Shown here: positions 310-14,442 of the stretch, one piece after another | Layout of the letters: every line of letters begins with the position of its first letter | Numbering within the stretch: position 1 is the first letter of the stretch | Virus record (IMG/VR): IMGVR_UViG_3300031994_000070 | Origin: an uncultured virus (IMG/VR IMGVR_UViG_3300031994_000070) | Taxonomy: Duplodnaviria; Heunggongvirae; Uroviricota; Caudoviricetes | Length of the DNA stretch: 20,000 nt | Reading direction: 5' to 3' (one strand) | The notes under the pieces: model-generated | Told to the model about the DNA's origin: nothing | Seen by the model: only the letters and a program-made list of their open reading frames with translations | Database searches by the model: none | Program-made: the position numbers and the translations under genes

Positions 310-891
310 TTAAAGCTGCTCTTGGCACTCTATAACTTTCTGCTCCATTTCTTCAATAATAACATCTAATAATACTGGATAGCAATTTTGAGAATCAACC
401 CCCACATGATACATAAAAGGTATGTCATTGAAGAAATTTTCGTTTTGATGTGTATGCCCATAAAGATTGCATGTACACTGTTTCAAACTCTCCTTTTGGA
501 GATTAGCGGTTAATGATGGATAATGACTTAAATAAAAATGATATTTTTTATAATGTAATACATCTGCCCATTTAACATCAATTACGTTTGTGCAGGTATT
601 ATACATCACAATTCGATTATCTGTGTCATGGTTACCAGCGATAATATGAATTTTACCATTTAATCTTTCAATGAGTTTGCGATTTGTATTCAACATCTCT
701 GGAGTACCACCGCCAAGACATACATCTCCTAAAAGATATACTATATCATCATCATGCACGACAGCATTCCAACGCTCAATGATACCCTCATTCATTTCTT
801 GGACTGATTCAAATCCACGGGGCTTGTATATAAATTCTCTATCGTGATTAAAATGTAAATCGCTTGTTACAAAAATCATACTATTCCTCAT
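310..891 (-). CDS. calcineurin-like metallophosphoesterase
   Basis: Motifs SDLH, LGD, GNHD, HYP, GHTH in canonical order; overlaps the stop of the upstream kinase. Confidence 0.9.
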   Translation of the reverse strand: MRNSMIFVTSDLHFNHDREFIYKPRGFESVQEMNEGIIERWNAVVHDDDIVYLLGDVCLGGGTPEMLNTNRKLIERLNGKIHIIAGNHDTDNRIVMYNTCTNVIDVKWADVLHYKKYHFYLSHYPSLTANLQKESLKQCTCNLYGHTHQNENFFNDIPFMYHVGVDSQNCYPVLLDVIIEEMEQKVIECQEQL

Positions 892-1354
892 TAATTACAA
901 ATACTTCATCGAATCCTTCTTCTATTGAAGGCGGTATCATTCTATTAAACATACCAGTAATCGCATATGGCGGCACGTGTTCTCTACCTGTTCTACCTTC
1001 ATTACGTTTTAATGAAGTTTCTAATGGCGTTTTAACCCAAATGGCATATACATGCTCATAGGTGCCACCTTTTCGAGCAATGGCTTTTAATAATTTATTT
1101 CTTGTGCTAGGTGTTAAATTAGTCTGGTCTGCAATAACGTGATAACCATTTAATAAATTATCACATATATCTCCTACAAATTTGCGATAAGTTTCATCTT
1201 CTTTATCAAAATAACTCTCATCATCTTTTAATAAAGAAAATCTAATCGCATCTCTTGATACCCATTTAGTTTTGGGATGCTTATCGACATAGTATTTAGC
1301 AATTGTTGATTTGCCGGACGCTGGCTGTCCGCAAATTAAATATAAATTACTCAT
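881..1354 (-). CDS. P-loop kinase, AAA_33 / polynucleotide kinase-like
   Basis: Walker A GQPASGKST, SRDAIR, ADQTNLT..R and lid RNEGR motifs typical of Pnk-type kinase domains. Confidence 0.85.
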   Translation of the reverse strand: MSNLYLICGQPASGKSTIAKYYVDKHPKTKWVSRDAIRFSLLKDDESYFDKEDETYRKFVGDICDNLLNGYHVIADQTNLTPSTRNKLLKAIARKGGTYEHVYAIWVKTPLETSLKRNEGRTGREHVPPYAITGMFNRMIPPSIEEGFDEVFVINEE

Positions 1355-3321: not shown

Positions 3322-3464
3322 TGCTGTTAACCTCTTAAATTAAATTAGAAGATTTTATTCTTCTGAATTTATTAAAAAATCAACGGGGCAAATTATAAGT
3401 GTTTGCTCAATGGAATTTTGATATTATAATGAAACACAAAAATAAAAGAAAAGGAGGGGAATAT

Positions 3465-5240
3465 ATGAGTTTACAAGTTTGGCTTCCTCTTACAAAAGAT
3501 TTAAGAAATCAAGGTTTAGCTACAATTGAACAATTGTCAGGGACGGCGGTTTTTAAAGATAGTGGTAAAATAGGAAATAAAAGTTTAAATTTACATAATT
3601 ATTTAACTTTTAATTGTCCTACCTTATCAGGAAAAAAGAATTTTTCATTTTGTTTTTGATATAAACCAGAGACTTCTACCTCTACAGTTAATTGAAATGA
3701 TGTAGTCGCATTTTTTGATAGTGGTGGAGGTCTGTTTAGGTTAGAAACAAGTTATGGATATAGTAATTATATTTTAAGTATGCATAATAATACCAGTTAT
3801 GCTATTTTTCCTAATAGCGGTGGTTCTTATGGGTCTAATTTAGTTATTTCTAGTGCACGAGATATTTGGTATCATGTTGCAGTTATTGTATCTGAAACTG
3901 AAGGAATCAATTGCTATATTAATAATGAACTTAAATTTACTATCGCTCATGCTGGAGGTTCAATTACAGGTAAATTTAATTTAGGAGAATATGCCAGCGG
4001 CGGCAATGAAGAGGGGAGTTTAAATGATTTCCGCATCTACGACCATTGTCTTTCTCCGATAGAAGTCAAAGAGCTTTCAAAGGGATTGGTGCTTCATTAT
4101 CCATTAAGTGATGGCAATATTGAATCAACCTATAATTATTTAGAAAATAAAAGTTTTTCAAATTATGGTAGCTATGGTTTTGGAAGTAAGGGTACTATTT
4201 CAATTACAACAGAAGTAGAACCACCAATAGCTGGAAATGAAGTGGCTTTAGTAACGAGTTCTGCAACAACAGCAGGTAATGGTGCGGTAGAAATTGCAAC
4301 TAGCATATATCCCGGCACAATTATGAACAAAGATGATACTTTCACAGTTACAGCATATGTTAAAGGAAAAGGTGCAACAATTGGTAAAAGGGCACATATT
4401 CATTTATACAATACCAATGGCACAAACACTCAATCTACTGGTAAAGATTATACTTTTACAAATGAATGGCAAAGAATTGAATACACATTAAAATGGAACT
4501 ATGATACTCCATCTAATAGTAGTTTAAATTGTTATGTAGTTGGATATATAGCTCCACAAGAGCAGTTTTATGTTAGTAGTATACAAGTTGAGAAAAAAGA
4601 CCACTCGACTCCATTCACTACAAATACAAGAACATCAACAATTATATATGATGCAAGTGGATATTGCAATAATGGTACAATAAATGGTAATTTAACTATT
4701 TCAACCGATACTCCTAAATATTCAATGTCCACTTATATGTCAAAAACTACGTTAATAACCCATCCACGTCCAGTGTTCGGAGGAACAGACCAAGAATGGA
4801 CTTGCGCAATGTGGGTTAAATTAGATAATACATCACAAGGCAGTCAAGCTATGAACAATTTTAATATATCTAATAATATTGTTCATGCTTCTAATAGTAC
4901 ACCTTTATTATATTTAAATGATGGCACAAATGATTATTATATATATGGAAGTCAAGCGGTTAGCGCTGGAGTTTGGACACATGTTACTTTTGTATTTAAA
5001 AATAGTGATGGAACAAGAAATGTCTATATTAATGGTGTATTAAAAAATAATTATGGGCCAAATAAAACATCTACCCCAAGAGGTATTCCAGATATAGTAA
5101 CTGTAGGCACAAATTTAGCTGGTTACATATCTGACTATCGGGTATATGCAACACCTTTATCAGCCGACGACATTAAATCACTCTATCAAAACGAAGCTCA
5201 ATTAGATGCATCAGGTAACGTCTTTGGCCCAATTAGATAA
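3465..5240 (+). CDS. LamG/concanavalin A-like domain protein (two LamG-like domains flanking a carbohydrate-binding-like domain), 591 aa with TGA=Trp
   Basis: AGGAGG RBS then ATG 3465; track ORFs 3399..3659 and 3780..5240 are in one frame, separated only by TGA 3657-3659 (FSFCF*YKP, where LamG has W) and TGA 3693-3695; WYHVAV, LNDFRIYD, WTHVTF and ISDYRVY LamG motifs. Confidence 0.85.
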
Positions 5241-5244
5241 AACT

Positions 5245-5280
5245 AAAACCCCTCGGTATAACCGAGGGGTTTATTTTTTT
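5245..5280. terminator. bidirectional intrinsic terminator between convergent genes
   Basis: 12-bp stem AAACCCCTCGGT/ACCGAGGGGTTT with A- and T-tracts on either side. Confidence 0.85.
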
Positions 5281-6508
5281 AGCTATGATGTTTCATTAAA
5301 TACTCTGGAGAAACGCATTTAAAAGACCTTACTCCGTCAAAAGACCTGAACACAATTCCTTCTTTCATTTTTCCATTGATGCGAGAAGTTTCGCTATTAA
5401 CATAATCACGTAACTCCTCAATAGTATCGGGTAATGTATAATTTGTATCTAGTAATGGTACTCCTGGTAATCCATAGATAGATAAGAAGGTATGCATTGC
5501 ATTTGGATTTAAACGATGATGAGTACCATCTTTATATCCAAAAATTACATTGAAAATTGCTAATTGATGGTTATTTAAACCATAATCATTATCTTGAATA
5601 CCTTTACCATAAGTTTCACCTTGAATAGTGATATACTCATATTTAGGTTCGGTGTCTAAAATATTAGTAAGCACTTGCTCAATATGATATTTGTCGCTCA
5701 TTTCTGTATATACGTTAGTATCATAGAAACCTTTTTTAGATGGTTTATCAAATGCGATATTACGAGAGCAGACTAAATATTCATATTTAGGGGCAAATGG
5801 ATTATGATTTCTTTTTAAAGTAAAAGTGGTAGAAGTGCCATCAATTTTTTCAGTTGCCATCCAAGGTGTTTTATCTTCTAATACCCAAAGCATATTTTCC
5901 ACACGCTCTTCATCGGTTTTTTTAACCCAAGCTGGCCAACCTCTTTTATCTTTTTTACGCCCAAAGAACACGAAGAGTAATTTTTTACCCCATTTACGTT
6001 TCATTAACCAATAGAATGGTTGATGTTTAAATAATTCTTTGTGGCGTTGTGCCATAGAATAATATTTATCAACACCTCTGCCTTTACGTTTGTTATCTTC
6101 AGCCACCGCATATGTAACTCCTAACTGTTTAGTTAAGAAACGAGATTCATCGTCTAAACGGTGCGCCACGCCATCAGTATCATAAATCGCTTCTGCGTCA
6201 GCAGTCCAACCAAAATTTTCAGCAGACATTAATAAACCTTGAGATAAACTTTTGCACATTTTTTGTGTTTTGATTTTATAATGTTTGCTAACTAAAAATT
6301 CCATATTGGTAAAAGGTTCTACCTCTGGTAATTTAGAGTCAATTTCAAAATAAATTGCTAAATCATTAGGTTTAAACTCACCTTTACCAACTACAACTGT
6401 CCAGCCACCGATATGCGCCAGCTCAACCCTATCATAGTTAGGAATTGGAGTTACATTATCAATTTTAATAATATATGCTAATTGTCTTACTTGTTTAGAA
6501 TCTAACAT
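5279..6508 (-). CDS. ATP-dependent RNA ligase, Rnl2/DRB0094-like, with N-terminal OB-type domain
   Basis: Motif I TEKIDGTS, IQGETYG, EGIVF and terminal FKCVS; N-terminal IPNYDRVELAHIGGWTVVV..IYFEIDS typical of the DRB0094 family. Confidence 0.9.
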   Translation of the reverse strand: MLDSKQVRQLAYIIKIDNVTPIPNYDRVELAHIGGWTVVVGKGEFKPNDLAIYFEIDSKLPEVEPFTNMEFLVSKHYKIKTQKMCKSLSQGLLMSAENFGWTADAEAIYDTDGVAHRLDDESRFLTKQLGVTYAVAEDNKRKGRGVDKYYSMAQRHKELFKHQPFYWLMKRKWGKKLLFVFFGRKKDKRGWPAWVKKTDEERVENMLWVLEDKTPWMATEKIDGTSTTFTLKRNHNPFAPKYEYLVCSRNIAFDKPSKKGFYDTNVYTEMSDKYHIEQVLTNILDTEPKYEYITIQGETYGKGIQDNDYGLNNHQLAIFNVIFGYKDGTHHRLNPNAMHTFLSIYGLPGVPLLDTNYTLPDTIEELRDYVNSETSRINGKMKEGIVFRSFDGVRSFKCVSPEYLMKHHS

Positions 6509-8711: not shown

Positions 8712-8844
8712 TTATCTTTAACTTTCTATAATTATTATATCAAATTTTTTTATAAAAATCAAATATTTCGCGTACGCCGGCTGTCACGGGGGCCCAAGGA
8801 AGGTGGACCGCTTGAATTCCACAACTAACTATATTACTTATTTA

Positions 8845-9959: not shown

Positions 9960-10388
9960 TTATTCGTTTATATCTTCTTCAAAGATATAGTCGCAACCAT
10001 CAACTGATTTAATGTATTCTAACATATCAGCATATTCCGGTCTGTGGAACCAATCATTGAAGATATAGGTATAAGAAACTTTTTCAGCGCCAAGAGCCTT
10101 GCCGATTTTTCTGAACTGCTGGATTTTAAATCCACAGGTCTGCGGTTTTTCATCGGCACTGCCGTGGGTTTCCTGATACTTTTTCTCATAAATGATAAAT
10201 TCTTTAGTATTTTCGTCGAAGAATGCTTCGTCCGGTAAGAGCTTTTTAGAGATAATGGAGTCCCATTTGATGCCCTTCTGTTCTAAATATCTATACAGAT
10301 TATATTTCTGTAAATTAACAGCACCTTCGTGGTTAATTTTTACTCGTTCTTCGAATTTTAATCCAGTTGTTGTATCTCTGTAAAGCAT
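9960..10388 (-). CDS. PD-(D/E)XK nuclease-like protein
   Basis: G..FE...PDEA...YEKKYQ..GSADEK pattern; own promoter TTGCTT-17-TATAAT at 10423-10451. Confidence 0.65.
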   Translation of the reverse strand: MLYRDTTTGLKFEERVKINHEGAVNLQKYNLYRYLEQKGIKWDSIISKKLLPDEAFFDENTKEFIIYEKKYQETHGSADEKPQTCGFKIQQFRKIGKALGAEKVSYTYIFNDWFHRPEYADMLEYIKSVDGCDYIFEEDINE

Positions 10389-10609: not shown

Positions 10610-10695
10610 ATACGTACCCAACGGACTCGTCGTAACACCAAACCTCCGTCAGTTGTAGACTTACTACCATAAATTGGACTTCTCTTACGAGCGTG

Positions 10696-10751
10696 CAGAA
10701 TTTTTAGCATTACCCACCTCGCGCCACGTGGAGGCAAATTCTGTGCGAGGC
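10696..10751 (-). ncRNA. minimal HDV-like (theta-type) self-cleaving ribozyme
   Basis: P1 GCCTCGC/GCGAGGT (G1-U wobble), J1/2 A, P2 CAGAATTT/AAATTCTG, P3 GCC/GGC, L3 TCCACGT, P1.1 CC/GG, vestigial P4, J4/2 CTAA with catalytic C. Confidence 0.88.
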
Positions 10752-10830
10752 TGGAGATGTCGGGATTCGAACCCGAGTCCGCGACAGTTCACTTTGGATT
10801 TAAGCCACGTCGAACGCCCATCGCATCCCC
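10752..10830 (-). ncRNA. mini-tmRNA (tRNA-like domain only, no tag ORF)
   Basis: 5' GGGGATG...TTCGAC and 3' GGAC-TCGGG-TTCGAAT-CCCGA-CATCTCC-A; G3-U70 and A73 Ala identity; P2a CGTGGC/GTCGCG closed by an 18-nt loop; no encoded CCA. Confidence 0.75.
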
Positions 10831-11333: not shown

Positions 11334-11943
11334 ATTGAGAGAACCATTGTATATTTAAAATTGAGCCTTCGCCCTACCTCAGTTACCTTCAGTTATGGTC
11401 TGTCAATGGGGAGATTAGCGCGTGTACGGAGTAGCTAATTCCGTCCAACTAACCCCAGGCCGCCCTCGCCCGAAATCCCATGAGAGATTGATTACTCCCG
11501 CCTTTCACCTACCGTTCGCATATTTACGTGTTCTTGTACCCTATATAAGAACGGAATCTGTCCAATCAACGTGCCGCGTTAAGCTACTTGGATGTGCGTG
11601 CGAGGTCTCATAGTAGGTCATTTCTCCTACGTCTCGGCACAAACGATTTGTTAGCATTTCCAAGGTTTGACTAGTTTGCTACGCTAACCCTAACTTGGAT
11701 TCTTCCCCACAGGGGCGTCTATTGCATCGTCGACTTCACGCACTACATTTAACTGCGATAACTGACAGCGCTGCCACTTCAGGTACGTCCTATTCAGGAC
11801 TCCTTTTAATAGGTCGCCCTATTAAAAACGACTTCTTTTCAAAGTATCCTTATCAATCCATCGTCTGCTCCGCAACACCTCAGCATAACTGGTTTAGTTA
11901 CTCTGCACTGAGTTAATATTAAATACACAATGCTTCTCTCAAT
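11334..11943 (-). ncRNA. large structured ncRNA (~610 nt), ROOL-like candidate
   Basis: 29-nt terminal inverted repeat (26/29 identity), many internal helices, GC-richer, no credible ORF, strong promoter upstream, tRNA 5 nt downstream; family name inferred from size and context only. Confidence 0.7.
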
Positions 11944-13487: not shown

Positions 13488-13679
13488 TTACATAGGAACA
13501 GCTCAACTTATTCCATCTTCAGAATCAGTTAATTCATAATCAATAATAGTGGAATCTCTGTCGAGTATTTCCTTTGCCTGTGTTTTAGTAATACCGGGAC
13601 TATAATAGTAGTAATCCCAGCTCTCATTTTTACGTTTAATCCATAAATAATGATACGTGTTTTCAGTTTTTTCTGCCAT
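13488..13679 (-). CDS. hypothetical protein (63 aa with TGA=Trp; 58 aa if TGA is stop)
   Basis: GAGG RBS; MAEKTENTYHYLWIKRKNESWDYYYYSPG...DGIS*AVPM; TGA 13503-13505, then TAA just before the amidase RBS; promoter TTGCAT-17-TATACT at 13768-13796. Confidence 0.65.
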
Positions 13680-13796
13680 GTTATAACCTCTACTTTTTTT
13701 AAGGGCACAACCAATTTATTGTTGTTATTTGCCCTATTCATTTTGCAATTCACTTTTCTCCAAAAATAGTATAACATTTTTTTTATAAAAATGCAA

Positions 13797-13826
13797 ACAA
13801 AAAAGACAAGTTAGCACTTGTCTTTT
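13797..13826 (-). terminator. intrinsic terminator after tRNA cluster
   Basis: AAAAGACAAGT/ACTTGTCTTTT hairpin with U-tract. Confidence 0.75.
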
Positions 13827-13830
13827 GGTA

Positions 13831-13976
13831 TGGCGCCTCGAGTAGGATTCGAACCTACAACCTATCGGTTATGGAGCCAGAGGTGAGTTACGTTCCTCAC
13901 ACCTTGGGAGCGACCCAATGCACTACTTTATACGACTCTGACACAGCCGATTGCTCTACCGTTGAGCTATCGAGGC
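13831..13976 (-). tRNA. tRNA-Asn(GUU) interrupted by a 71-nt tRNA-shaped insert
   Basis: 5' exon 13976-13943 (GCCTCGA...ATCGG-CT-GT) plus 3' exon 13871-13831 (T-AA-CCGAT...TCGAGGC-G-CCA) join into a perfect 75-nt tRNA-Asn with G73. Confidence 0.88.
13872..13942 (-). ncRNA. tRNA-like intervening element
   Basis: Acceptor GTCAGAG/CTCTGGC+T+CCA, D-like GTAT/GTGC, TTGGG/CCCAA arm, T-like GTGAG/CTCAC; loops non-canonical. Confidence 0.8.
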
Positions 13977-13977
13977 A

Positions 13978-14052
13978 TGGTTGCGGAGGTGGGATTCGAA
14001 CCCACGGCGACTAGGTTATGAGCCTAGGAGGCTACCGCTGCCCTACCCCGCG
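13978..14052 (-). tRNA. tRNA-fMet-like (CAU)
   Basis: CGCGGGG start with C1:A72 mismatch; CTAGG-CT-CAT-AA-CCTAG; ACCA. Confidence 0.88.
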
Positions 14053-14058
14053 ATATTG

Positions 14059-14134
14059 TGGCTGGGGTGGCTGGATTCGAACCAGCGTATATAAGAGTCA
14101 AAGTCTTATGGCTTCACCGCTTGCCGACACCCCA
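14059..14134 (-). tRNA. tRNA-Gln(UUG)
   Basis: TGGGGTG/CACCCCA, TAAGA-CT-TTG-AC-TCTTA, GCCA; promoter TTGATT-17-TATAAT at 14149-14177. Confidence 0.95.
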
Positions 14135-14178
14135 ATGTTTATATAAATATTATACCAAATATTTATATAAAAATCAAA

Positions 14179-14442
14179 TTATTCGCTCATATCAGCTAAA
14201 TACACCCACACAATAAGATATTGCGGATTTGTGCTTTGCCACGCATCAGGGCATTTAGCCATTGAATATTGGACTACTGGAGTAAATAATGAAAAAGTGT
14301 ATTTTTGATTTTCAAAATTTATCAATTCATTATCTTTGTAATGCGCATAACCCAATAGACCATCACCGTTACCATAAATAAAACGGTATTGAATATCTAT
14401 ATCTTTTAATTGTAACTGATTAATGATGTCTATTACTCGCAT
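14179..14442 (-). CDS. hypothetical protein (87 aa)
   Basis: AGGAG RBS before ATG 14442 (MRVIDII...); the longer track start lies inside tRNA-Ser. Confidence 0.7.
   Translation of the reverse strand: MRVIDIINQLQLKDIDIQYRFIYGNGDGLLGYAHYKDNELINFENQKYTFSLFTPVVQYSMAKCPDAWQSTNPQYLIVWVYLADMSE

Follow-up and report, generated by a model that had tools for sequence, protein, structure and literature searches.

A tRNA-Asn gene split within its anticodon by a tRNA-shaped insert in an uncultured phage

The split tRNA-Asn gene and its surroundings

The window analysed here is a 20,000-nt stretch of DNA from an uncultured gut virus of the Caudoviricetes (IMG/VR record IMGVR_UViG_3300031994_000070). Its minus strand carries, at 13831–13976, a tRNA-Asn(GUU) gene in which a 71-nt insert separates nucleotides 35 and 36 (Table 1). 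An initial annotation, made from the letters alone, had proposed two Asn exons, a 35/36 break and an insert running from +1 to the CCA of a second cloverleaf. Re-reading of the minus strand gave an exact match to the sequence it had quoted, and the anatomy is borne out by sequence, Rfam, ARAGORN and folding. The Rfam tRNA model (RF00005) covers 13834–13976 end to end (model positions 1–71, 59.5 bits for a gathering score of 29), and its alignment sets 74 nt apart as a block within the anticodon loop. With this model, the window's 12 tRNAs without an interruption reach 47.9–73.3 bits. All 21 stem pairs of the outer gene are intact, and it classifies as a tRNA (RF00005).

Table 1. Coordinates of the split gene, its transcription unit and the candidate end-healing and sealing genes in the window
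Feature	Position	Strand	Details
Metallophosphoesterase, candidate for healing 2',3'-phosphate ends	310..891	(-)	Metallophos_2; phrog_547, E 4.2e-45
Polynucleotide 5'-kinase (end healing)	881..1354	(-)	AAA_33; phrog_505, E 6.7e-21
Rnl5-type RNA ligase (Naegleria/Deinococcus DRB0094 type), candidate for sealing the exons	5279..6508	(-)	PF21189 OB + PF09414
Intrinsic-terminator-like hairpin and T run	13801..13826	(-)	End of the Gln-Met-Asn unit
Exon 2 of tRNA-Asn	13831..13871	(-)	Nucleotides 36-76; UAAC at start, GCCA at end
tRNA-shaped insert (intron), 71 nt	13872..13942	(-)	G+1, 7-bp acceptor, D-like, anticodon-like and T-like arms, U73, CCA
Exon 1 of tRNA-Asn(GUU)	13943..13976	(-)	Nucleotides 1-35; CUGU as 3' end
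tRNA-Gln(ttg) and tRNA-Met(cat)	13978..14134	(-)	One unit with the split Asn gene; one base from Met CCA to exon 1
Promoter-like site, TTGATT / 17 nt / TG-TATAAT	14149..14177	(-)	10/12 consensus matches, extended -10; upstream of the Gln-Met-Asn unit

Run with default settings, ARAGORN finds 12 tRNAs in the window and none at 13831–13976. When the insert is deleted in silico, tRNA-Asn(gtt) is called; when introns are allowed, the same coordinates and a 71-nt intron are returned, with a parse lying one base over that reads His(gtg). Under the identity rules that distinguish tRNA-Asn from tRNA-His, the Asn reading is favoured because G73 is present and G-1 is not. A separate tRNA-His is present in G056, another phage with a split tRNA-Asn gene.

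Folded alone, the insert forms a four-arm cloverleaf, with a 7-bp acceptor, arms of 4, 5 and 5 bp and a single-stranded UCCA. The fold energy is -23.1 kcal/mol (z -2.09), a value reached by 9 of 200 shuffled sequences; a chance origin of the cloverleaf is excluded because its layout recurs in other records, not because of this statistic. Its loops are non-canonical, as had been claimed: the 'anticodon' loop has 5 nt and the T-like loop 8 nt. Searched alone, the insert has no match to any Rfam family at E <= 10, the tRNA model included, and yields no ARAGORN gene. It does not classify as a canonical tRNA (RF00005), and is tRNA-like only in its cloverleaf pairing, its G1–C72 pair and its UCCA. 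Classification as a group I intron was rejected as well (71 nt, no Rfam match at E <= 10), and searches of 13780–14000 and of the insert alone detected no small self-cleaving ribozyme (hammerhead, HDV-like, twister and the others in Rfam) at E <= 10. A bulge-helix-bulge intron at the canonical 37/38 position does not fit a break at 35/36, and no such motif was noticed on inspection of the minimum-energy and centroid folds of the precursor.

The promoter-like site upstream of the Gln-Met-Asn unit has similar counterparts upstream of tRNA-Glu and upstream of the split Asn gene of L097. In three metatranscriptome runs (X6, X7 and X19), whose contig-level data are uninformative on this point, no phage-specific RNA contig lies over 13878–13931. 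In X6, an RNA contig 89 nt long (depth 2) links 13871 to 13943, skipping exactly the 71-nt insert. It shows 3 mismatches in its 50 fitting nucleotides, and its other 39 nt lie off the window. It was rejected as a spliced product and read as an ordinary tRNA-Asn of another organism.

Recurrence in other phages

The initial annotation had proposed to look in related phages for split tRNAs with cloverleaf inserts and to test their stems for covariation; both gave a positive result. A tRNA-Asn split at 35/36 occurs in 10 records belonging to 5 lineages. The inserts comprise one tRNA-Asp, two different tRNA-Gly and two mutually unrelated types of degenerate tRNA-like module, all ending in NCCA. The tRNA-Asp(gtc) is found in G001 and L105, and the two tRNA-Gly(tcc), which are unrelated to each other, in L097 and G056; these inserts classify as tRNAs (RF00005), unlike that of the window. 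In G005, a phage related to G001, three elements of the insert remain: the acceptor stem, a T arm of canonical form and the terminal UCCA.

The borders of the insert are uniform. Its first base is a G paired with C72, its last bases are NCCA and the spacer is 0 nt on both sides in 10 of 10 records, a count to be read with the ascertainment of most scans, which preset tRNA-Asn, position 35/36, the leading G and the CCA. The CCA at the junction is retained even where the outer gene has no encoded CCA (L097, G005). The base 5' of the insert is a U in every split gene. U is the -1 base favoured by bacterial RNase P, and is also the commonest one among the tRNAs of the window phage (10 of 12, by hand count).

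The split gene is the sole tRNA-Asn of G001 and G005, two complete records scanned in full, and of the 19-kb tRNA region of G056. The inner Asp of G001 and the inner Gly of the G056 region are likewise the sole tRNAs of their type there. Other tRNAs of G005 and G056 hold short inserts of 42–55 nt that are not tRNA-like and share the motif ACAGCAAG. RNase P would be unable to define such inserts, which hints at another excision system. The motif has 0 matches in the window.

Most pattern matches proved spurious. Chance matches accounted for 93 of the 94 loci of the first pattern, for 7 of 12 metagenome loci and for all 13 genome loci; in further pattern scans, 25 of 28 loci were not split genes (most were ordinary tRNA-Met), and 23 of 25 loci of another scan matched by chance. 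Two scans for closely spaced T loops made no assumption about tRNA identity. Among at least 120 candidates, the first gave three nested cases with irregular borders (L138, L171 and L220). The second gave, among at least 123 candidates listed, 74 with a tRNA ending at CCA, of which two yield an outer tRNA on exact deletion, namely L365, a tRNA-Asn interrupted by a tRNA-Gly, and L381, which is irregular. The remaining 72 of the 74 listed look, in the cases inspected, like a tRNA with a free 3' tRNA fragment downstream. G005 is among the candidates of this second scan and was left uncounted, its insert not being an ARAGORN tRNA.

A position-free scan of viral contigs for the window's Asn anticodon arm returned G001 alone. 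A blastn search of 13700–14200 against GenBank phages gave generic tRNA matches only, with 0 of 52 records covering at least 80% of the query, and a PhoH-based locus search of viral contigs retrieved no close relatives.

Constraint on exons and insert

A homologous insert is carried by L102. The exons of the L102 and window genes are identical at 68 of 75 positions, and six of the seven differences make up three compensatory stem pairs; the probability of both-sided change at three pairs by chance is about 4e-5. These changes mark the outer tRNA-Asn as a functional element, in agreement with its earlier description as undecayed. The inserts match at 49 of 75 columns in a hand alignment, in which all 16 pairs of the acceptor, D-like and T-like stems persist, six with changed bases and none broken, and the anticodon-like arm is not conserved. 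Across a wider set, all 21 outer stem pairs are intact in each of the 8 precursors examined. The exons and the shape of the insert thus both look to be under selection, and from this it would follow that the exons must be rejoined.

RNA ligase and end-healing enzymes

The predicted product of the ligase gene has a PF21189 domain at residues 10–94 followed by PF09414 at residues 215–399, and classifies as an Rnl5-type ligase of predicted activity. Its best solved relative is NgrRnl (5cot, E 1.1e-23), 9 of 9 structure matches being to Naegleria RNA ligase; it belongs to phrog_968 (E 1.8e-62), and its alignment contains EKIDG, a stretch of the KxDG type. The Rnl2-type label it had been given is wrong: the domain order is OB then nucleotidyltransferase, and not the N-terminal nucleotidyltransferase with C-terminal Rnl2 domain of that family. 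Characterised Rnl5 ligases seal nicks in duplexes and are not known to seal anticodon loops, which weighs against the role proposed below.

The company of split gene and RNA ligase claimed for the window holds across records. An Rnl5-type ligase and a polynucleotide kinase are both present in 4 of the 4 lineages with enough sequence, and the phrog_505 kinase lies 1–4 kb from the ligase in the window, G001, G005 and G056. The phrog_968 ligase is encoded by the window and by all 3 complete viral records that have the split gene, versus 2 of 19 complete control records (Fisher p ~0.002, uncorrected for relatedness, G001 and G005 being related). tRNA matches of 114–163 nt occur in 2 of 4 ligase-bearing controls (G017 and G019), a figure that covers ligase-bearing records only. 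The association is also confounded, since Kienbeck et al. (2024, PMC10879173) describe a 140-fold enrichment of this DRB0094-family ligase among gut phages with HDV-like theta ribozymes, and the window has a weak HDV-like match at 10695–10753.

Neither the splicing endonuclease PF01974 nor the RNase Z-like PF12706 was found among the phage genes of the 3 complete split-gene records (0/3). On this result, the cuts would be the work of enzymes of the host or of unrecognised proteins.

A possible splicing route

The best explanation, to which a probability of about one half is assigned, is that the split gene yields functional tRNA-Asn and that its insert is a tRNA-derived intron. The enzymatic route envisaged for it, also at about even odds, involves a cut at +1 by RNase P, a cut after CCA by a 3' tRNA endonuclease and sealing of the exons by the phage ligase. 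The recurrence of the layout in other phages suggests splicing by ordinary tRNA-trimming enzymes together with a phage RNA ligase, which would be an undescribed route. In its favour count the exact borders, the diversity of the inserts, the lack of a second tRNA-Asn in the records scanned, the promoter-like and terminator-like elements of the unit, the CCA retained at the junction, the U ahead of the insert and the accompanying ligase and kinase genes. The anatomy, its recurrence, the selection on exons and insert and the gene company are what the sequences show; each enzymatic step is inferred.

The unit extending from the promoter through Gln, Met and Asn to the terminator would give a single transcript. 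Within it, the insert would fold as an independent tRNA-like module, its acceptor stacked on the T-like arm and followed by NCCA, and the host tRNA end-processing enzymes would take it for a tRNA. RNase P would cut 5' of G+1, leaving a 3'-OH on U35 of exon 1, and a 3' tRNA endonuclease would cut directly after the CCA of the insert, leaving a 5'-phosphate on U36 of exon 2. The exons would be held together by the outer acceptor and anticodon stems, so that the Rnl5-type ligase of the phage could close the nick in the anticodon loop. Should the 3' cut yield a 5'-OH and a cyclic phosphate, the phage kinase and phosphoesterase could repair the ends. An insert that is a complete tRNA (Asp or Gly) would be a second product beside tRNA-Asn; a decayed one, as in the window, would have kept no more than its excision requires.

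The second cut counts against the mechanism. Bacillus RNase Z is inhibited by CCA, and the Thermotoga enzyme cuts after CCA; to our knowledge, cleavage at exactly this point has no established enzyme. As for the first cut, the non-canonical D and T loops of the window insert, with no tRNA-model match at E <= 10, speak against the mechanism, as such an insert may be a poor RNase P substrate.

A broader reading, more tentative than the route itself, is that of a third mode of tRNA splicing, next to group I self-splicing and the bulge-helix-bulge endonuclease mode, in which a tRNA module serves as intron, is cut out by RNase P and a 3' tRNase, and leaves exons to be rejoined by a phage ligase of the Rnl5/DRB0094 family. 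The module would have originated at the RNA level, a mature tRNA having been ligated into a tRNA-Asn severed by an anticodon nuclease and the product later copied into DNA. That unrelated tRNAs repeatedly occupy a single site, U35/U36 of tRNA-Asn, would point to such an origin. The initial annotation had put forward a similar origin as an alternative, and had suggested that the insert could shield tRNA-Asn from anticodon nucleases.

Alternative explanations

Excision might instead be due to a dedicated endonuclease, of phage or host, that leaves 5'-OH and 2',3'-cyclic phosphate ends for the phage to heal and seal, the tRNA shape being a recognition handle or a mark of origin. Such a route would resemble fungal and plant tRNA splicing or T4 tRNA repair, in which healing by kinase and phosphoesterase precedes sealing by ligase. 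It would make full use of the complete heal-and-seal set of the window (phrog_547, phrog_505 and phrog_968) and of the kinase and ligase of G001, G005 and G056, and could account for the ACAGCAAG-containing non-tRNA inserts of G005 and G056 that are beyond the reach of RNase P; in its favour, too, we know of no established enzyme for the after-CCA cut. It is nevertheless unlikely. The position of the boundaries at +1 and CCA in five unrelated inserts is left unexplained, as is the retention of acceptor stem, T arm and NCCA by decayed inserts; no archaeal-type splicing endonuclease is found in the 3 complete records, and the window has no ACAGCAAG motif.

The outer tRNA-Asn could also be a dead host gene, the inner RNA being the sole product and the exons a mere leader and trailer that record an insertion or a gene replacement. 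In its favour are the intact inner tRNAs, the only tRNA-Asp of G001 and the only tRNA-Gly of the G056 region, and the contigs of the three metatranscriptome runs, in which no spliced RNA was seen. What makes this explanation improbable is the state of the exons. In all 8 precursors examined they have lost no stem pair and retain the conserved tRNA positions, and they change compensatorily while the insert shared with L102 diverges much faster. The inner RNA is moreover unusable as a tRNA in the window, with its 5-nt 'anticodon' loop, and in G005, where D and anticodon arms are missing. Inner and outer identities differ, neither a stalk nor a flanking repeat is present, and G001 and G005 have no second tRNA-Asn.

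There is very little room for a small self-cleaving or self-splicing ribozyme in which the cloverleaf would be incidental. Phages of a similar kind do use small ribozymes beside tRNAs, as with the theta ribozymes of PMC10879173, and the weak HDV-like match of the window could be quoted in the same sense. Against this, no ribozyme, group I intron or other family of Rfam matches the insert or its surroundings at E <= 10; 71 nt is far below the size of a group I intron; relatives carry an ordinary tRNA-Asp or tRNA-Gly at the same site; and a single self-cleaving motif would make one cut, not two.

An assembly error or chimera is least probable of all, and can be practically dismissed on the strength of the identical 146 nt in L095 (a distinct strain, 98.6% identical, from another metagenome record), of a spanning DNA contig and of four other lineages with the same architecture. 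The contig, from run X4, covers the entire stretch with 1 difference, and X4 may be the window's own source. L103, which shows 100% identity over 10,592 nt, probably represents the record of the window itself and does not count as independent. The concern raised initially about misassembly at the junctions is thus answered at the contig level, by L095 and the X4 contig.

Relation to known systems

Bacterial-type tRNA genes are not known to harbour introns other than self-splicing ones. Group I introns do share the location of the insert, since they lie in the anticodon loop of such genes in bacteria and phages, but they splice themselves and measure 200 nt or more, whereas the insert has 71 nt and no Rfam match. 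The enzyme-spliced introns of archaea and eukaryotes are closer in being short, non-self-splicing introns of the anticodon loop that require two cuts and an RNA ligase. They differ in position, 37/38 instead of a break at 35/36 within the anticodon itself, and in recognition, which would here proceed through the tRNA fold inside the intron and not through a bulge-helix-bulge.

In T4, a polynucleotide kinase/phosphatase and the ligase Rnl1 reseal the anticodon loop cut by PrrC. There too, a broken anticodon loop is the target of a kinase/phosphatase and an ATP-dependent RNA ligase of the phage; that break, however, is damage inflicted by a host-defence nuclease, whereas the present one would be programmed by the structure of the gene and the ligase is of the Rnl5/DRB0094 family. 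The release of sequences flanking a tRNA-like fold by RNase P and RNase Z is also familiar, from mitochondrial tRNA punctuation, from the mascRNA of MALAT1 and from synthetic tRNA-guide RNA arrays. In these cases the flanks are not rejoined, whereas here they are the halves of a tRNA and would need ligation.

The nearest precedent is found in the Lak megaphages, Prevotella phages of about 540 kb. In the excerpted account of Devoto et al. (2019, PMC6784885), their tRNA genes have short inserts that are not group I and the introns are called enigmatic; one intron, in a tRNA-Thr(TGT), is considered as possibly tRNA-coding. By this description, the likeness to the window lies in phage tRNA genes with short non-group-I inserts. 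The phages are very different and the gene is tRNA-Thr there and tRNA-Asn here; borders at +1 and CCA, an analysis of selection, a link to a ligase and a mechanism do not appear in that excerpt. The initial claim that nothing of the kind had been described was therefore nearly right, the 2019 Lak remark alone, as far as the excerpt goes, anticipating the observation.

If the proposed route is correct, a protein-spliced intron recognised by its tRNA fold would represent new biology arising from enzymes universal to cells, and the 'enigmatic' short introns of phage tRNAs would find an explanation. A function would be suggested for the sets of RNA ligase and kinase that are common in tRNA-rich gut phages. 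The broader reading as a third splicing mode would provide a role for the Rnl5/DRB0094-family ligase, which has none known and shows strong enrichment in gut phages. The compact, naturally occurring architecture could also serve as a design by which a single precursor gives rise to two separate RNAs. On a practical note, standard tRNA finders would undercount phage tRNAs, as default ARAGORN overlooked the gene of the window and its relatives.

The split tRNA-Asn gene and its insert

The sequence given by the initial annotation for the split gene (13831-13976) was confirmed on the minus strand, and its reading as a tRNA-Asn(GUU) split by a 71-nt insert holds. Positions 13834-13976 give a full-length match to the Rfam tRNA model, in which a 74-nt block stands in place of three anticodon loop positions. 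The match scores 59.5 bits, against a gathering score of 29 and against 47.9-73.3 bits for the 12 unsplit tRNA genes of the window. Default ARAGORN finds these 12 tRNAs and misses the split gene, which is called tRNA-Asn(gtt) after in silico removal of the 71 nt. When introns are allowed, ARAGORN places a gene with a 71-nt intron at these very coordinates, shifting the borders by one base and reading His(gtg). This parse was set aside: the discriminator G and the absence of G-1 point to Asn under the tRNA identity rules, the borders under the Asn reading fall exactly where the inner fold starts and stops, and in its 19-kb tRNA region the related phage G056 encodes tRNA-His separately and no other tRNA-Asn.

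The isolated insert is predicted to fold into a cloverleaf with a 7-bp acceptor stem and arms of 4, 5 and 5 bp, followed by UCCA, which bears out the earlier description of pairing stems with non-canonical loops. Its fold energy of -23.1 kcal/mol (z -2.09) is equalled in 9 of 200 shuffles, a statistic that would not suffice by itself; the claim is carried by the relatives. No Rfam family matches the insert at E <= 10, including tRNA, group I introns and small ribozymes. The window insert is thus tRNA-shaped, not a tRNA.

Features of the split gene, its transcription unit and the phosphoesterase, kinase and ligase genes in the window
Feature	Position	Strand	Remark
Phosphoesterase	310-891	-	phrog_547
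Polynucleotide kinase	881-1354	-	phrog_505
RNA ligase	5279-6508	-	phrog_968
Promoter-like site	14177-14149	-	10/12 consensus matches, with TG
Exon 1 of tRNA-Asn	13976-13943	-	
Insert	13942-13872	-	71 nt
Exon 2 of tRNA-Asn	13871-13831	-	
Terminator-like hairpin	13826-13801	-	

The split gene is real DNA. The identical 146 nt are found in L095, a distinct strain (98.6% identical) from another metagenome record, and 13500-14300 is spanned with one difference by one contig of the DNA run X4, which may be the source of the window DNA. Another record, L103, matches the window at 100% identity over 10,592 nt and probably represents the window's own record. By their labels, the runs containing the phage are gut metagenomes of sheep and goat. 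The split tRNA-Asn is the last gene of a unit that runs from the promoter-like site through tRNA-Gln and tRNA-Met to the terminator-like hairpin. CCA is encoded in all 12 other window tRNAs, many of which are spaced by 1-7 nt. A promoter-like element (TTGAyT, 17 nt, TGGTATAAT) lies ahead of tRNA groups at window 14149-14185 and 8727-8765 (-), and also at L097:64-100 and L105:616-661, two unrelated split-Asn records.

Recurrence in other records

The search for split tRNAs with cloverleaf-type inserts in related phages, proposed at the outset, gave 10 records including the window, in which the outer sequence and the insert each occur in 6 different versions. In all 10, U35 and U36 directly flank an insert whose first base is a G paired to C72 and whose last bases are NCCA. 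Most scans required these very features (35/36 break, leading G, trailing CCA) and the sole position-free scan of this anticodon arm gave G001 only, so that a constant 35/36 position is not established.

Records with a split tRNA-Asn gene
Lineage	Records	Insert
A	window, L103, L095	71-nt degenerate module
A'	L102	66-nt homologue of the lineage A insert
B	G001/L041 (114 kb, terminal repeats), L105	75-nt tRNA-Asp(gtc)
C	L097	74-nt tRNA-Gly(tcc)
D	G005/L246 (170 kb), G006/L261	71-nt degenerate module unrelated to that of A; acceptor stem, canonical T arm and UCCA retained
E	G056/L365 (139 kb)	tRNA-Gly(tcc) different from that of C

A pattern made of this anticodon arm and the 35/36 break only gave one true split gene (G001) among 94 viral loci. 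When the insert also had to begin with G and finish with CCA, 5 of 12 metagenome loci and 0 of 13 genome loci were true; without the anticodon-stem constraint, 3 of 28 viral loci were (G001 again, G005 and G006). Among at least 123 rows, the scan fixing neither outer tRNA nor position yielded G005 once more and G056, which has a different outer anticodon stem.

Nested tRNAs with less clean borders were also found (L138, L171, L220, L381). At L171:190-400 (G003), the anticodon loop of another tRNA, by manual reading an Arg(UCU) with its break at 34/35, encloses a tRNA-Phe(gaa) ending in ACCC, a case suggesting that nesting is not limited to tRNA-Asn. The 345-kb phage G019, which encodes a phrog_968 ligase, has two tRNAs with inserts of ~80 nt (L445:49-211 and L444:52-206); the L445 insert has an acceptor-like stem, a canonical T arm and an end near CCA, with extra 5' sequence, so that its borders are not exactly +1 and CCA. 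Among the matches listed, 72 of 74 complete-tRNA loci on viral contigs (L293-L415) have a free-standing T arm with 3' acceptor strand beginning within 13-21 nt of CCA, often with a second CCA end. These pieces could be tRNA 3' fragments or minihelices, or possibly attachment-site duplicates. Directly past the split gene of lineage C, L097:285-345 resembles the 5' portion of a long-arm tRNA, with a hairpin behind it and no 3' half before the next coding start.

Selection on exons and insert

All 21 outer stem pairs are standard in the 8 precursors examined (L365 left out of the count), and at 10 of them the pair type varies, with two or three types among 5 distinct sequences. The window and L102 exons are identical at 68 of 75 positions, and six of the seven differences form three double-compensatory pairs (5-67, 6-66, 48-64); the chance that seven random changes strike both sides of three pairs is ~4e-5. 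Since the two inserts are homologous, the insertion predates the window/L102 split. The inserts match in only 49 of 75 aligned columns. By hand alignment, all 16 pairs of the acceptor, D-like and T-like stems are still paired; six of these have changed, including one in which both bases differ, and the anticodon-like arm, of 5 bp with a loop of 5 nt in the window, is down to ~3 bp. The covariation check proposed in the initial annotation thus came out positive, and the outer gene and the insert are, as judged from these comparisons, both under selection.

No other tRNA-Asn is present in the whole records of G001 and G005, nor another tRNA-Asp in that of G001, nor another tRNA-Gly in the 19-kb tRNA region of G056. 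The outer genes of L097 and G005 do not encode CCA, and their inserts are CCA-ended nonetheless. When a selected outer tRNA has a break in its anticodon, its halves have to be joined again in the RNA. To a functional split gene, spliced by some route, we give a probability of about 0.8.

Three metatranscriptome runs with parts of the phage, available as contigs only, contain no phage-specific contig across the split tRNA, so that splicing is neither shown nor contradicted by RNA. An 89-nt RNA contig skipping exactly the 71 nt of the insert was rejected as spliced product, its mismatches and non-matching remainder assigning it to another organism's plain tRNA-Asn.

Possible splicing route and associated enzymes

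From the observed anatomy, recurrence, selection and gene company we infer the enzymatic steps of a route, to which we give even odds: an RNase P cut at +1, an endonuclease cut after CCA and sealing by the phage ligase. RNase P would cleave 5' of the insert G+1. It needs a 12-bp acceptor/T-arm stack, NCCA and a U at -1, all offered by the module. The endonuclease would cleave after the insert CCA. Thermotoga RNase Z cuts there and Bacillus RNase Z is blocked by CCA, which makes this the weakest step. The exons would be held together by the outer acceptor and anticodon stems, with a 3'-OH/5'-P nick sealable by an ATP-dependent ligase; should the 3' cut leave a 5'-OH and a cyclic phosphate, kinase and phosphoesterase would heal the ends before sealing. 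Neither an archaeal-type splicing endonuclease nor an RNase Z-like fold is encoded in the three complete records (G001, G005, G056).

Short inserts of ~42-55 nt also occur in the anticodon region of other tRNAs, at L276:3280-3393 and 3399-3526 (G005) and L448:55-171 (G056). They are not tRNA-like and share the motif ACAGCAAG, then T/C-TT. Such inserts speak for a dedicated endonuclease acting with heal-and-seal repair, an alternative that is rather unlikely for the split gene; the window contains no copy of the motif. Still less probable is that the outer gene is dead and the inner RNA alone in use, given exon stem pairs that are intact and compensatory in a split gene that is the sole tRNA-Asn of G001, G005 and the G056 region. 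A ribozyme insert, with no support found and no Rfam match, is very improbable, and an assembly artefact, likewise without support and confronted with the L095 copy and the X4 contig, is practically negligible.

The split gene can be likened to enzyme-spliced tRNA introns, as a variant of them; the proposed route, if true, would be a new splicing mode. Full-text literature searches gave no description of a tRNA-shaped intron excised by tRNA end-processing enzymes and a ligase. For the nested layout they gave one precedent: 'enigmatic' introns are reported in tRNAs of Lak megaphages, and of one intron it is said that it 'itself may encode a tRNA' (Devoto et al. 2019, PMC6784885).

The window ligase, first annotated as Rnl2-type, is instead of the Rnl5/DRB0094 type, as judged from its N-terminal OB domain followed by a nucleotidyltransferase domain and from its closest solved relative, the Naegleria RNA ligase (E 1.1e-23). 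G001, G005 and G056 each encode a phrog_968 ligase (E 2.9e-70 to 8.7e-62) with a phrog_505 kinase within ~1-2 kb; the G001 kinase carries a fused HD domain, and G001 additionally encodes a phrog_547 phosphoesterase and a nucleotidyltransferase. As controls, 50 viral records were picked by an unrelated T-loop pattern, 19 of them at least 90% complete. Among these, phrog_968 is found in 4/50 and 2/19, and any PF09414 ligase in 10/50 and 5/19, respectively. The co-occurrence anticipated initially is thus observed (phrog_968 in 4/4 split-gene phages vs 2/19 controls, p ~0.002, Fisher), in a comparison weakened by the kinship of G001 and G005, by a window that is not a complete genome and by a theta-ribozyme confounder: the same ligase family is reported to be 140-fold enriched in gut phages with HDV-like theta ribozymes (Kienbeck et al. 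2024, PMC10879173), and the window has a weak HDV-like match at 10695-10753. The ligase may simply be a marker of a phage lineage.

A small ORF at window 9960-10388 (-), with a weak PD-(D/E)XK match, shares 77.6% identity with a G001 stretch over 76 residues, far above the 30-45% of the other proteins common to both. It may be a mobile gene moving among tRNA-rich phages.

Other RNAs near the tRNA cluster

A miniature tmRNA-like tRNA-like domain is found at window 10749-10830 (-) (RF00023, 48.1 bits whole-window, 39.6 bits in a local search), with merely 14 nt in place of the model's 308. Its 3' side is adjoined by weak HDV-like ribozyme matches at 10695-10753 (-), both below gathering (RF02682, 27.1 bits, E 0.0025; RF00094, 29.2 bits, E 0.013). 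By cutting at its own 5' end, such a ribozyme would generate the 3' terminus of this tRNA-like RNA, a role proposed for theta ribozymes (PMC10879173); if true, this would give the phage kinase and phosphoesterase a second job. The tRNA region also contains a full-length ROOL RNA at window 11344-11936 (-) (RF03087, 286.6 bits, model 1-574).
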